Virus genome (UHGV): UHGV-0367998
Source: a virus
Strand: one strand, 5' to 3'
Length of the DNA: 18,683 nt
Position numbers: made by a program. Positions within the stretch are counted from its first letter, which is position 1, and every line of letters starts with the position of its first letter. This document shows positions 9,001 through 18,000 of this stretch, one piece after another.

Positions 9001-12000
9001 CGCGATCAAGAATGGCGGTAATGCACAGGCTGCGGTGGATGAATATTATGCTGCGACTGGTTCACAACCGCATCAACAGAAAATTCAGCAACAGAAAACC
9101 CAACAGCTTTTACAGAAGTGGCAGACGTGGGCGGCGGGCGATCCGGTTAAACAGGAGTTTGTAAAAGCGACTGCCGCCAATATGCCTGCTTTGCTGGAAC
9201 CTGGTCGTGAAAAGGAGGTGGAAATTTATTACCAGAATCACCTCAGGGATAAAAAGGCAGAGCATGAAAAGGCGCTGGATTATAGCGCTTCCGCATCTGC
9301 CGAGAAGATCAAAGGCTGGATGAAGTAAAAATACGCGGCAGTAACGCACTCACCGTTAATCTCGTTCACTTACGCCCGACCATCGTGTCGGGCTTTTTTT
9401 ACTGGAGTCTGTATGGCTTTTTCAGATGAGCAGCGCCCTGAAGCGCAATTGGGTAACCAGAACCGCAGCAGTCTGAACATTAAGCAGCCGGGAGAAAATT
9501 ACTGGCAGGATTTTTTCAACAACCCGGAGAACGCTGTTGATCACAGCACGTCGTTCAGCCTGGGCGATGTATTGCCAACAATGGGTAAAGGTTTCGCCCA
9601 GTCCGTCCGGGGAACAGGGGAAATGGCCCGTGGACTCGGTGATGCACTTGTAAATAATCCTGTAAAAACGCTTGCCGGGTTGTCGTCTTTCATGACGGAT
9701 GTTTACATGCCGCCTTCCTCCACGCAAAAGGAACTGGGCGCACCACCTTCTGTTGGAGATGCGATTAAAAACATTCCCGATGGAACAGGGAAAAACGCGG
9801 TGACTGATACTGTCGGTAAAGGTCTGAAGGCCACAGGCAAGGCAGTCAGTGATGGTGCCAAAGCCTCGGATGAATGGCTGACAGATCAGATGTCGCCGGG
9901 TGCTGTTCGTGCGCTGAACACGCCAATGAGTGAAGGCTATGATGATTCTGCGGTCTTGCTGACGAAGGGTGTAAACCTGATTGGTGCGCTTGTACCTGAT
10001 CTGGTTGCTGGCGGTGTGGTTAGAAAGGTGGGACAGGTCGCACTGAAAAGAACGCTGACCGCCGGGCTGGAGAAAAAATACATCGCGGCAGGAGTGCAGC
10101 CGGAAAGAGCCACGGCACTGGCAGCAGAAGCTGTCGATAAAAAAATGACGGATTTCTTCCATGCGGGCCTGATCACCCATTCCACAGCCAGTGCACAGGG
10201 GCAGAGTGCAATGTCGGCAGCAGATGCTGTTCTTAATGCGGATTACGCTGAGCTGGCGCAGTCACCGAAATTTCAGCAGACGTTTTTGTCAATTGATGCA
10301 GATCCACAGCACGCACAGCTTACTGATCGCCAGAAAATGGACCTGGCAAAAGAGCGTGTTGCCGATGAGGTGCGCGCGCAGCTGGCAACCGATCCTGAAT
10401 TGCTGGCTGTGAATGCCATGGCGGCAAAACTGGGCGATGCTCAGTTGTTTAATCTGGCGATGCGGGGCACGGCGAAGACCGTTAAAAGCGGCATTGTCAG
10501 AAATGCCACGGAACAGGGGACGATTAATGCGGCGCAGGGTGGCTATTCACGCTATCAGGAAAACACGGCATTGCGTGAGACCGCCGGAATGGATGTGTCA
10601 CCGGGGGAGGGCGTGGCTGACGCAACGATCGAAGGTGCAGCCCTTGGTGCTGCGATGGGCGCACCGTTCGGTGCGGTTGCCGGATATCGTGGAAAACGTC
10701 AGGCCGCAGAAGAAACCGCCATGCGTGAGGCTGAAGTCGTACAGCAGGGTGAAGCAGCCCCGCAACCCGAACCGGCTGATCCGGTGGCACAGCATCGCGA
10801 ATCCATGCAGGGCATGAATCGCGAGCAACTTCTGGAACAGTATGCTGATGCGGATATGGCACCTGAGGGAGACACGTCTGCCGTTCATCGCCGGGAAGCC
10901 GCCAGCCAGCTGTTAAATGAACTGGATGAACAGGCGAAGCGACAGGCGGTGATGGATGAGCTGAAGGCGAAGCCGCGCCCTGAACTGCTTGAGGAATACC
11001 GAAAACTCAGCCTGAAGGAAGGGCGTACTGATACTGAAGAGCAGCAGTTACAGGCTATCCGTGATGTGCTTCGCCCTCAGCAGGAGGCCAGACCGGAGGC
11101 ACAGCCACAGCCGGAAAATGCGGATGATGGCGACGGGAGTATTTACCCGACGGTGCGGTTCCGCGATCCGGATGAAGTTCGTATTGAAATTAACGGGAGT
11201 GGTGCGTCCAGACCAGCAGAACGCATTGAAAAGGTGCGTCCGGACAACCGTTATTTCACGGATGAAAAAAGTGCTCTGGGGAGCGACGTTTTCCGCAATG
11301 CCAGCGCCACCGGCCTGAAACCGTCCGTAGTGAAGAAAGGCGAGAATCAGTATGCCGTTGAAATGGATAATCCTGCGTTCTCTGAAGATGTGGCAACGGA
11401 GACCATTAACACTCTGGCTGACGGAGAGCGTATTACTGATGCTGATCCGATGGAACAGCCCGCGTTCATGCGTGACCCGCGATTCCGTGGTTTTACGGGG
11501 GATGATACAGAAGTGCAGGCCCGTCTTGCCCGTGGCAACGCGCCGACGGCGGAAGAACTGGTGCGTTCCCAGATGGCTGAAGGTGATGCCGGTCCGACAG
11601 CACAGGAGTTAACTGAGCGTCCACGCCTTCCCGCTCCCGGCGATATTCATCCCGGACAGGGATATCCGTTACCGGGAGAAGTAGCGCGTACGCCGGATGA
11701 AAATCAGGCCGGACGTGGTGGTCGTTTTACCACAACCGGTGAGGTGAAGGGCCAGAGTTTCCAGAAAGGACGTGCGCAGGCACCGGAAAATGCCGCTGGT
11801 CGCCAGGGGGAAATACTGGAGGGCGAAACAGTTCGTCGTGGTCTGCCGTCACCGGATGAGCAGAACGCCACAGCGCTGGTACGTGAAGGTCTACCGGCTC
11901 CGGACATTACACACAATGTCCGTATGCCTCAGCCTGATCAGCTTCCCCGAACTGTTCGTAACTCATTGCCTGAGCTCGCACAGCAGGCAGAAGTACGTCG

Positions 12001-15000: not shown

Positions 15001-18000
15001 TGTAGATAAAATACTCTATCCTGAAGATATTCGCAAGGGGCCGTATTACTCCCGTACCAGCAGTCTGACACCGGAAGAGACAATTGCATCGCGTTTTGTG
15101 CGCCAGATGCAGGATAAATTCCAGGTGCTGAAAGCTGTTCAGGAGAATATCCGTAAAACTGGCGGAAAAATAGACGACAGTAACAACGCTTATATGGCGG
15201 AAGAACTCTTCCACGGGAAGGCGGAAAACGACCTGAACGTGATGAAGGAGCGCTACGTTCAGCCACTGGCTAAATTACTGGCGGACTACAAAATTGCGCA
15301 GGCCGATCTGGATGAGTACCTCTACGCCCGTCACGCGCCGGAACGTAACGCGCATATCGCGAAAATCAACCCGAAAATGCCGGACGGCGGTTCGGGGATG
15401 ACCAACGCGGAAGCGGCGGAAATCATGCAGCGTGTGCGTAACAGTGGCAAACAGGCACAGTATGACCGTCTGGCAGGGATTGTTGACGATATGCTGGCCC
15501 GTCGCCGTGAGCTTATCCGTGAGGCCGGACTGGAAGAGAGCGGTGTGGTGGATGCCTGGCAGAACGCCTACCGTTACTACGTTCCCCTGAAAGGTCAGGA
15601 TGTTGACGGTGTGGTGTCACTGCCCCGTACAGGTAAGGGCTTCACCATCGGCGGACGTGAAAGCAGGCAGGCCATGGGGCGTGCATCCCGCGCACAGTCT
15701 CCTTCCACTCAGGCGATACAGGATTTGAGCGAATCGCTGATCCGCAATCGCAAAAACGAAGTGGGTAACGCCTTCCTGAAACTGGTGCAGGATAATCCCG
15801 ATAAGGATTACTGGCAGGTATTCACTGATGACAAACCGGACACCATGCGGGCGATTGCAGAGCGTGTTGATCCGGAAACCGGCGAAACCCGTCGCGAAGT
15901 TGTTGAACGTCCGGTGCCTATGGCAATGATGGCGGATCGCTACTTCACCACCAAAAAGGACGGCAAAACTTACTACATCAAACTCCATGACCCGCGCCTG
16001 ATGCGTGCGATGAAGAACATGGGGCCGGAAACCAGTAACGCCGTAATCCGTACGCTGGGGAAAGTTAACCGTTTCCTGGCAACGGTGAACACGTCGTATA
16101 ACCCGGAATTTCTGGTCAGTAACTTCATCCGTGACGTGCAGACGGCGGTGATGAACCTGAAGGCTGAGCAGGGAAGGAGCGACGGTAAACTGAAAGGGCT
16201 GGATAACTTATCCGCCCTGGCTGTGGTGAAAGACAGCCGGTCTGCCATGTCTGCCGTATACGCCAGTCTGCGTGGTAAAACCCTCACGGGCAACGGTGCG
16301 CAGTGGCAGAAGGTGTGGAAAGAGTTTGTTGAGGATGGAGGTAAAACCGGCTGGTTTAACATGGGTGACCTTGAAGGCCAGCAGAAGGAAATGGATCGCC
16401 TTGTATCGCTGGCGAAGGGAGGATGGAAAGGCCAGAGTATCGGTGCATGGCATTCGTTCCTGAACCTGGTCGAGGATGCCAACGGCGCGGTTGAAAACGC
16501 TCTGCGTCTTTCTGCCTATAAACACGCCCGTGATGCCGGTTTGTCACGCCAGCAGGCGGCATCTCTTGCCAAAAACATGACGGTGAACTTTAACCGTCGT
16601 GGTGAGCAGGGAGCGCTGATGAACTCGCTGTATATGTTTGCCAACGCCAGCATTCAGGGGACCGCAAACCTGGTGAGAACGCTCGGACATCTTAATGGCG
16701 ACGGGCCGTTACCGGAGCGCCTTCGCTGGAAGAATCTCAATGTACCGCAGAAAATCGCGCTTGCAGCTGTGGGAGCGGGTTATCTGCTTGGCTCGCTTAA
16801 CCGCAGTGTTGCGGGGGAGGATGATGACGGGGTTAACTGGTATGACAAGGTGCCGTCTCATGTGAAAGAGCGTAACCTCGTCATTATGAAATCGGTGTTC
16901 GGGGGCAAGGCCGGAGAGTACTGGAGTATTCCTCTGCCTTACGGGTACAACGTTTTCTTCCTGCTCGGGCATACTGCTGAAGGTGTGGCAGCGGGCGACC
17001 TGACTGCTTCACGTGCTGCCGGTAATGTTGTCGGTGGTATCCTGGGGGCATTCAGTCCTGTGGGCAGTGAAACGTCGGAAACACTGTCCGGGGCATTGCT
17101 GAAAAATGCAGCGCCGACCATTCTGCGTCCGTTTGCGAACCTTGCCATGAATGAAAACTTCATGGGGGCGCAGATTTACCAGGAGAACATGCCATTTGGC
17201 ACACCGAAACCGGACAGCCAACTGGGCAGACGTTCAACGCCTGAGGCGTACAAGGCGTTTGCATCCTGGCTGAATGCGTTCTCAGGTGGCAGCCAGTATC
17301 GTCCCGGCGCGGTGGATATCACACCGGAATCGCTGAAATTCTGGATTGACTATATCTCCGGAGGGACAGGGCGCTTCATTTCCAAAACCACAGATGCGGC
17401 GGTGAAATCGCTGAACGGTATTGATATACCGGAGCAGCAGGTGCCCTTCCTGGGGAAAATTTCGGGTGAGGTGATGCCGTATGCAGACCAGCAGAAGATG
17501 TACGACCGGATGACAGAGGTTGCGCAGTATCACGCAGAGCTGAAGAGTCTGACCGGTGCAGAAAGAACGGCGTTCATTGACGAGAACAACGGAAAATTGT
17601 TGATGAACGGGCTTATGCAGGATACCCGGAAGAGACTGAAGGATTTGCGCAAACAGCGCGATGCCATTTATGCCGACAGTTCTCTCAGTCTGGCGCAGCA
17701 GGCGGCGATGGTGAAATCGGTAGAGCGGGATATGAAGGTTGCCGTGGATCGCTTTAACCGCGAGTACAACAAAAAAGTGGGAGTGGATTAACAGAAATGG
17801 CCCCGTACGGAAGTGCGGGGCTGATTAAGAAATAAACACACATTAACCTGTAATAACCGGAGCTATTAACATATAGTCAGAAAGAGTATTTCATGTGAGA
17901 CAGAGAGCCGATTTATGTTTAATGAAGAAAAAGTTGCGTAAATGGCAGCGTATTTGCTGAAAAAACATGGCGGATCTATGCGTTTCATTAAGCTGATGTA

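Follow-up and report, generated by a model that had tools for sequence, protein, structure and literature searches.

Our subject is a giant gene in UHGV virus genome UHGV-0367998, a stretch of 18,683 nucleotides (nt) that we call the window; experimental work has been published on two orthologues. The first is open reading frame (ORF) 80 of phage Sp5 (ECs1242, 2,793 amino acids (aa)), whose deletion mutant, tested on E. coli K-12 MG1655, gave no plaques and no lysogens, a defect that could be complemented (Mondal et al., 2016, PMC5155283). In this mutant the heads were of normal morphology and DNase-resistant genome copies were at their normal level, and anti-tail-fibre antibody failed to bind to the heads; the authors concluded that ORF80 takes part in tail assembly and left its function unknown, with a hint of a COG1483 ATPase (PMC5155283). 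The second orthologue is gp47 of phage phi24B, which is abundant in purified virions and invisible in electron cryomicroscopy (cryo-EM) maps, and which was proposed to be a capsid-packaged ejection protein (bioRxiv 10.64898/2026.04.10.717836). Its total of 10,962 peptide-spectrum matches (PSMs) is the second highest in the phi24B virion proteome, and these PSMs peak in gel slices above the 80-kDa portal (10.64898/2026.04.10.717836).

In the product of the window gene we find two zincin-like domains, a predicted RNase and two conserved ends that are shared with other giant proteins of different central content. The explanation that best fits these results, which we hold with moderate confidence, is that this polyvalent giant protein is packed in the capsid and ejected at infection, and that it unites an essential role in the virion or in ejection with proteases that process the protein itself and with an RNase effector. 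For this explanation we take virion presence and essentiality from the literature on orthologues, read the domain identities, catalytic motifs and modular architecture from the present analysis, and infer the ejection, the envelope conduit, the self-processing and the RNA targets.

The gene is the giant late gene of short-tailed Shiga toxin (Stx)-type (Sepvirinae) prophages. Megablast matched it to 186 phage records (93–96% identity, coverage of 97% or more), every one from a short-tailed Stx or Stx-like phage such as phi24B, P13374, PA2 and Shigella 75/02, and 412 complete E. coli genomes contain 80% or more of the whole window. The protein is 92.8% identical to phi24B gp47 and is matched end to end by PHROG 616, a family without assigned function. 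In a Sepvirinae prophage, the gene comes after those for tail fibre, tail tip fibre and virion proteins, and in phage PA2 its orthologue, named 'LPD5 domain-containing protein', is the last gene before attR. The single 8.4-kb frame for a 2,792-aa protein described in the initial annotation was recovered; its statement that the domain combination could not be assigned to a characterised protein does not hold, given Sp5 ORF80 and phi24B gp47 in the literature and the exact protein annotated in NCBI. NCBI and UniRef already list that exact 2,792-aa sequence, which occurs on 47 contigs, under LPD5/LPD38 names; the family to which it belongs has also been recorded before, together with its polyvalent domains, its essentiality and its presence in virions. 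The parts of the gene to which we refer below are these:

9413–17791, plus strand: giant-protein ORF, 2,792 aa plus stop; orthologue of Sp5 ORF80/ECs1242, phi24B gp47 and PA2 gp48; last late gene before attR.
9413–9859, plus strand: aa 1–149, the most variable part among Stx-phage orthologues (67–72% identity to PA2 versus 95–99% elsewhere).
9860–10732, plus strand: conserved N-terminal domain, aa ~150–440, which also occurs at the N-terminus in other giants of 1.7–4.7 thousand aa; no Pfam family and no PDB relative.
10625–10693, plus strand: glycine zipper GxxxGxxxGxxxG (G412, G416, G420, G424, R426), conserved across distant homologues.
10703–12112, plus strand: acidic, Pro/Glu/Gln-rich low-complexity linker, aa 431–900, recognised by composition.
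12119–13009, plus strand: LPD5 cassette, made up of a head ('IEDFGE..GAAK' helical region, aa 903–1049) and Pfam LPD5 (aa 1050–1199, E=3.5e-45).
12953–13732, plus strand: zincin-like metallopeptidase domain 1 (zincin 1), aa 1181–1440; NCBIfam CLCA_X at aa 1181–1436, LPD1 helices at aa 1360–1439, HEWFH at nt 13259–13273.
13895–14332, plus strand: zincin-like metallopeptidase domain 2 (zincin 2), aa ~1495–1640; HEIIHH at nt 14060–14077, candidate third ligand E1606 at nt 14228–14230.
14657–14932, plus strand: Pfam MuF_C, the PBECR predicted metal-independent RNase, aa 1749–1840 (E=3e-18); near-invariant K1744, H1751, N1811 and S1815.
15029–17788, plus strand: C-terminal 920-aa module (C-module), aa 1873–2792, conserved over its full length; contains LPD38 (aa 2475–2680, nt 16835–17452).

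Four Pfam families match the protein, all above the gathering score: LPD5 (aa 1050–1199, 3.5e-45), LPD1 (aa 1360–1439, 2.2e-23), MuF_C (aa 1749–1840, 3.3e-18) and LPD38 (aa 2475–2680, 3e-48). All four are hallmarks of polyvalent proteins (Iyer, Burroughs, Anand, de Souza and Aravind, 2017, PMC5512222), and, as in that class, several unrelated domains, LPD-type ones among them, are joined in one large polypeptide whose gene lies among phage virion and late genes; the polyvalent architecture initially proposed is thus borne out by the profile searches. LPD5 and LPD1 occur together in most of the 120 best matches listed out of 1,295, many of them in proteins of 400–900 aa. The two HExxH motifs lie exactly where the initial annotation had placed them, HEWFH at aa 1283–1287 and HEIIH at aa 1550–1554 (within HEIIHHAMEH, aa 1550–1559), with EMAARAFE starting at aa 1374. 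Given the protein's own composition, 0.038 HExxH would be expected by chance (P ~7e-4 for two or more), and both motifs are kept in distant homologues.

The first motif lies in a region matched by NCBIfam CLCA_X (NF041907) over aa 1181–1436, covering 243 of 250 profile positions (E=1.5e-44). CLCA_X was introduced by Lenart et al. (2013, PMC3650047) as a family of zincin-like proteins in phages and plasmids whose HExxH is followed by a conserved Asp. Iyer et al. (2017, PMC5512222) describe a 'widely distributed phage-type' clade of metallopeptidases (MPTases), marked by an Asp behind HExxH and by a His where strand 2 ends. Zincin 1 fits this clade as judged from its conserved residues: H1262, E1264, H1283, E1284, H1287, D1290, E1374 and E1381 are among the positions invariant in 20 homologues of ~50% identity, giving a signature H..HEWxHxxD..ExxxxxxE that is the same in all of them. 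LPD1 corresponds to the C-terminal helical part of zincin 1, and EMAARAFE, which had been put forward as the site of a possible third ligand, falls inside it; both of its glutamates (E1374 and E1381) are among the invariant positions. In the PDB, the zincin 1 profile found only anthrax lethal factor, at a sub-threshold E=0.36, with HEWFHaLDnY aligned to HEFGHAVDDY, and a sequence search with the whole protein gave nothing significant.

For the second motif no curated Pfam or NCBIfam profile matched, the best being Peptidase_M76 below threshold (E=0.092). Across an alignment of 23 trimmed homologues (16–42% identity), no column but H1550, E1551, E1606 and A1609 is invariant; the motif always has its second His, with either HExxH or HExxxH spacing, the latter a variant noted by Iyer et al. 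(PMC5512222). An AlphaFold2 model of aa 1470–1665 (predicted local distance difference test (pLDDT) 81, core >90) runs from an N-terminal helix through three strands to the helix bearing HEIIH and a later helix bearing E1606, and thus shows the three-stranded sheet, N-terminal helix, HExxH helix and Glu-bearing helix of the ATLF-like fold. The closest structural relatives of the model were the anthrax lethal factor N-domain (9.1), Pro-Pro endopeptidase (PPEP)-3 (7.7), PPEP-2 (7.4), edema factor (7.2) and lethal factor (6.7), followed by minigluzincins, YbeY, Wss1, IrrE, SprT and ArdC. We therefore liken zincin 2 to anthrax lethal factor and other ATLF-like (M34) zincins and to the Pro-Pro endopeptidases, and the second HExxH is, by this model, a lethal-factor-like zincin domain that had no prior annotation.

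Both HExxH motifs, initially described as of metallopeptidase type, are in zincin-like domains with their catalytic signatures intact, and activity and zinc binding are predicted for both. A profile–profile comparison of zincin 1 with zincin 2 gave a probability of 4%, that is, no detectable relation beyond the motif. Two shorter proteins consist of just zincin 2 and PBECR: P0018 from Pectobacterium (489 aa) and P0029 (454 aa). A partial Salmonella enterica variant (P0019), aligned to aa ~1440–1660, carries an extra segment between LPD1 and zincin 2; NCBI names the protein a phosphoribosyltransferase, and the extra segment weakly matches Pribosyltran (E=0.004).

The third predicted enzyme, the MuF_C domain, scores 66 bits against a cut-off of 27.6. 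H1751 and S1815, each at least 90% conserved in 12 sequences, appear to sit in the secondary-structure elements named in the PBECR definition, and the PBECR of the giant protein, a predicted RNase, is apparently active. The phi24B preprint calls MuF-C a metallopeptidase and builds on it a proposal for peptidoglycan digestion (10.64898/2026.04.10.717836). This label looks like a mis-assignment, since MuF-C is RNase-fold (PBECR) by definition (PMC5512222) and the zincin-like domains are those at aa 1181–1440 and 1495–1640.

The PBECR domain also stands out in the comparison of alleles. Over a cassette of ~190 aa around it (aa ~1685–1880, window 14465–15052), other E. coli prophage alleles are ~100% identical to ours on both flanks and 17–63% identical inside; the alleles swapped in this way are P0028 (a cluster of 147 sequences) and P0011. 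Among Stx-phage orthologues, divergence is highest in the first ~200 aa. We read the PBECR cassette swap, the Salmonella insert and the divergent first ~200 aa as signs of conflict-driven change.

The two ends of the protein behave differently from the centre: they are conserved, and are shared by proteins whose central cargo is interchangeable (ART, methyltransferases, Sbno-like helicase, ddrB-ParB, PBECR1, LPD3). The N-terminal domain has 95 representatives in a library of 1.8 billion proteins and is N-terminal in most of the full-length matches (proteins of 1.7–4.7 thousand aa). Six such giants were scanned with Pfam; their cargo comprised MuF_C, an Sbno-like helicase, ddrB-ParB with a methyltransferase, LPD5/LPD1 plus LPD39, and an Eco57I-type methylase, and three of the six end in LPD38. 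A profile search of the PDB gave no significant relative of this domain. The Gly-zipper-like hydrophobic segment mentioned in the initial annotation is a true GxxxGxxxGxxxG, with all four glycines kept in homologues of 26–32% identity, and the Pfam Gly-zipper matches to it are weak and sub-threshold. The acidic, Pro-rich linker that follows is likewise real, although somewhat longer than the ~400 aa first given to it: aa 431–900 contain 8.7% Pro and 11.9% Glu, have a net charge of -30, and are depleted of order-promoting residues. Judged from this composition only, the linker is probably disordered, and aa ~586–690 within it may form a small folded insert.

The C-module is 33–78% identical to its relatives over the full length, and many of its polar, Gly and Pro positions are invariant, including those in HAPERN, NPEF..NF.RD.QTA, NFNRRG, FANASIQG and PLPYGYN. 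Its AlphaFold2 model (pLDDT 82, predicted TM-score 0.79) is mostly helical with a small beta domain; Gly/Ala-rich, moderately hydrophobic helices lie at aa 2448–2466 and 2514–2553. Relatives of the module carry N-terminal ART-PolyVal, methyltransferase, PBECR1, LPD3 or LPD5/LPD1. Three C-modules appeared to stand alone: P0086 is part of a small element that bears an integrase, P0152 begins at the edge of a contig, and P0155 follows a separate ART-PolyVal gene of 3,166 aa. From these contexts, some of them contig edges or remnants, the 'stand-alone' modules are partly split or truncated genes and no proof of autonomy. The same design in split form is seen in an unrelated metagenomic phage (locus L004, 1–14473, Logan SRR30207543 contig), where an ART-PolyVal gene of >3,166 aa and a 213-aa gene are followed by the LPD38 C-module as a separate 1,490-aa gene.

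Peptide data on phi24B gp47 bear on how the protein is present in the virion, and they agree with the packaging that had been proposed for the window protein, the orthologue being detected by virion mass spectrometry. By the supplementary proteome of the phi24B preprint, gp47 is estimated at ~19 copies per virion (range 11–35). Six regions sampled from the N-domain to the C-module have similar peptide totals, with 73–96 PSMs each; the peptide table gives summed counts, and the per-slice profile can be used for whole gp47 only. The similar totals together with the peak in the top slices indicate that the sampled regions are all packaged and that most copies are not extensively cleaved. The literature on orthologues also fits the usual description of a podovirus ejection or internal virion protein (T7 gp14–16, P22 gp7/16/20, N4 gp50–52), which is in the virion, outside the ordered shell and tail, and needed for infectivity and not for DNA packaging. 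Without the Sp5 orthologue there is no plaque formation or lysogenisation on E. coli K-12 and particles lack detectable tail fibre, which indicates more than an accessory anti-defence role, namely one in structure or ejection.

The giant protein contains no cysteine, versus ~25 expected from neighbouring genes (P ~1e-11), and it shares this with genes upstream of it:

6688–9328, plus strand: upstream cysteine-free genes at 6688–7344, 7347–7793 and 8066–9328, by position and length phi24B gp51, gp50 and gp48.

This correspondence was read from annotation tables, by position and length and without alignment, and on the same basis we take 8066–9328 to be the essential Sp5 ORF79. The ORF at 2758–4026 is also cysteine-free. 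In phi24B, gp51, gp50 and gp48 are present at ~20–36 copies in the virion and are missing from the cryo-EM structural model (10.64898/2026.04.10.717836). The genes at 6688–9328 are probable partner internal or ejection proteins, and the cysteine-free run of late genes that includes the giant gene suggests a block of internal or ejection proteins.

In the mechanism we propose, the giant protein would be made late and packed inside the T=9 head, in some 10–35 copies, together with the small cysteine-free proteins encoded upstream, and would be needed for tail-fibre-positive, infectious particles. At infection it would most likely be driven out through the tail, preceding or accompanying the DNA, as a string of cysteine-free domains with loose connections. 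We propose this string-like passage by analogy with the virion RNA polymerase (vRNAP) of phage N4, described as a beads-on-a-string giant that passes a tail channel of ~35 Å. The end modules, that is, the glycine-zipper N-domain and the LPD38 C-module, would serve packaging, ejection and envelope crossing, and the central cargo (LPD5, the two lethal-factor-like zincins and the PBECR RNase) would act in the cell. There the zincins may cut the polyprotein, or host proteins, into working units after delivery, in keeping with Iyer et al. (PMC5512222), who argue that such MPTases process their own polypeptide or cleave proteins of the host, and the PBECR RNase may attack host or defence RNA. A bolder form of this proposal, which we put forward tentatively and regard as possible but doubtful, is that the N-domain and the LPD38 C-module make up a hitherto unrecognised, structurally novel, single-chain protein-injection chassis of podoviruses, essential for particle completion and envelope crossing and fitted with interchangeable enzymatic cargo. 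In relatives, such cargo comprises RNase, zincins, ART, methylases, helicases and ParB nucleases. What multi-protein ejectosomes do in T7, P22 and N4, such a chassis would do with one chain, and if it exists, ~20 copies (~6 MDa) would be injected per infection by a Stx phage.

Several points weigh against our explanation. Ejection into the host is argued by analogy, and the enzymatic readings (metal binding, proteolysis, RNase) are predictions; zincin 1 itself scores below the curated NF041907 cut-off (152.4 versus 260 bits), which fits a related subfamily rather than CLCA_X proper. Most gp47 copies are little processed in the virion, so any self-cleavage would have to come later. PDB searches with the N- and C-modules found neither a known ejection protein nor any solved structure similar to them in sequence or fold, and the conduit role thus rests on analogy; nor does the C-module contain a strongly hydrophobic transmembrane helix (the best 19-aa Kyte–Doolittle mean is 1.22). 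Classical ejection-protein mutants give complete but non-infectious particles, and the Sp5 phenotype, with DNA-filled heads and no detectable tail fibre, differs from this.

This phenotype speaks for a different role, in tail assembly or head completion, in which the protein would act in morphogenesis without being delivered and its enzymatic-looking domains would serve assembly, for example in processing gp84. The normal, DNA-filled heads of the Sp5 ORF80 deletion that do not bind anti-tail-fibre antibody led its authors to their conclusion of a part in tail assembly, and the phi24B decoration protein gp84 is cleaved at sites to which no protease has been assigned. We nevertheless consider such a role improbable, because ~19 copies are found in purified mature virions and none in the resolved tail and shell, and assembly factors or chaperones are not usually retained at such mass. 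The domains, moreover, are those of delivered polyvalent proteins. The motif [AG]xxxxGK[ST] (Walker A) was not found anywhere in the giant protein, which leaves the COG1483 hint unsupported. We reject an AAA+ ATPase, as hinted by Mondal et al. (2016), on this absence and on the lack of any ATPase family in the Pfam and NCBIfam matches.

A second alternative keeps the ejection and changes the target of the peptidases: the metallopeptidase domains would digest peptidoglycan and so give an ejection conduit access to the inner membrane. A wall-degrading activity is common in the ejection proteins of podoviruses, and neither the giant protein nor any of the ten window ORFs scanned matched a lysozyme, a transglycosylase or another wall hydrolase. 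We think this proposal of the phi24B preprint unlikely, since the peptidase it names is MuF-C, that is, a PBECR RNase fold and not a peptidase. Zincins of the lethal-factor, PPEP and minigluzincin kind are not known to resemble cell-wall peptidases of the M23 or M15 type. The relatives that the window zincins resemble (lethal factor, Pro-Pro endopeptidases, minigluzincins) are protein endopeptidases, and Iyer et al. favour self-processing or host-protein cleavage.

Least likely of the three, in our judgement, is a purely accessory, DarB-like antirestriction effector without structural role, the reading to which the wording of the initial annotation inclines: a PHROG annotated 'DarB-like antirestriction' does match aa 2353–2680, relatives of the end modules carry the methyltransferase, helicase, ART and ParB-nuclease cargo typical of counter-defence, and the PBECR cassette is swapped between alleles as in an arms race, but that PHROG match covers aa 2353–2680 only, within the shared C-module, Pfam finds no methyltransferase or helicase domain here, and neither essentiality on K-12 MG1655 nor an altered particle composition would be expected from the loss of antirestriction alone. 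A tape-measure protein is defined by a gene within a long-tail module. Such a protein, or a tail-fibre protein, is ruled out here by the short-tailed podovirus type, by the place of the gene after the fibre and moron genes, and by the lack of any tape-measure family in Pfam or PHROGs, so the alternative raised at the outset, an ordinary tape-measure or tail protein with chance HExxH motifs, does not describe this protein, whose motifs lie in zincin-like domains.

The giant gene is preceded by a ribosome-binding GGAG at 9404–9407, six bases 5' of its ATG, and by one further signal:

9374–9400, plus strand: terminator-like GC hairpin (9374–9393) plus a run of seven T, immediately 5' of the ribosome-binding site; predicted from sequence.

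The stem of this hairpin is 7 bp long, with 6 GC pairs, and the element stands between a gene of 420 aa and the giant gene, whose start codon is ~12 nt further on. By our own inference, it is presumably read through by Q-antiterminated late transcription. Other genes of the window touch less closely on the giant protein. At 7765–8055 (plus strand) is a small ORF, named 'bacteriocin' in related phages, with a glycine zipper of the YMGG type that narrowly misses the Pfam cut-off (E=2e-6); its product occurs at a very low level in the phi24B virion proteome and was classed there as a contaminant. The region at ~4000–6200 has low GC (0.41–0.45) and moron-like genes, among them an Ail/Lom outer-membrane protein (5032–5766) and a toxin gene of the Hok/Gef family, the latter as annotated in the closest genome. 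Downstream, a 174-aa ORF at 17942–18466 (plus strand; GC low, 0.44) encodes a SocA/Panacea antitoxin domain (Pfam E=2.5e-19); there is no obvious toxin partner in the window, and in the closest genome ibrB-like and PAPS-reductase-like genes follow.

The giant gene makes up ~14% of the genome of short-tailed Stx phages, the vehicles by which Shiga toxin genes pass through E. coli; an orthologue of its product is essential and among the most abundant virion proteins, and the functions of its domains are predictions. What we add is modest: the assignment of zincin 2, the correction of the MuF-C label, the chassis-plus-cargo pattern, the cysteine-free gene block and the PBECR cassette swap. These results distinguish chassis from cargo and fix targets for mutagenesis, namely the zincins at aa 1181–1440 and 1495–1640 and the PBECR RNase at aa 1749–1840.

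With the polyvalent proteins of Iyer et al. the window protein shares a large multidomain build, a virion-gene context, LPD5, LPD1, LPD38, MuF-C/PBECR and two zincin-like MPTases, of which zincin 1 corresponds to their clade with His after strand 2 and Asp, and zincin 2 to their group with HExxH or HExxxH spacing. That family is defined by architecture and not by one function, and an essential orthologue such as we have here is not predicted by a model of accessory early effectors. Phage P1 DarB is also very large and head-packaged, and the 'DarB-like' PHROG shares the C-terminal LPD38 region; unlike DarB, the window protein has no Pfam match to methyltransferase or helicase domains. DarB is characterised by methyltransferase and helicase domains and is dispensable for particle formation. 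Closer in its proposed way of working is the virion RNA polymerase of coliphage N4 (gp50, ~3,500 aa), which is carried in a T=9 podovirus head, consists of loosely connected domains, is reported to include a zincin-like MPTase, and is expelled through the tail; its gene adjoins genes of smaller internal proteins (the ejection proteins gp51 and gp52), as in the window. Unlike gp50, the window protein has no RNA polymerase module, shows no detectable sequence or fold similarity to solved structures, and would be present at ~19 copies, whereas N4 has only a few copies of its polymerase per virion. Closest of all are Sp5 ORF80 (ECs1242), phi24B gp47 and the 933W-type giant late protein, which have the same length (2,792–2,793 aa), position before attR and domain content. 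From these Stx-phage orthologues the window allele differs mainly in its first ~200 aa; its PBECR cassette is one of two or more alleles, and it lies in a prophage where a Panacea-domain gene follows the giant gene and no stx gene lies within this window.

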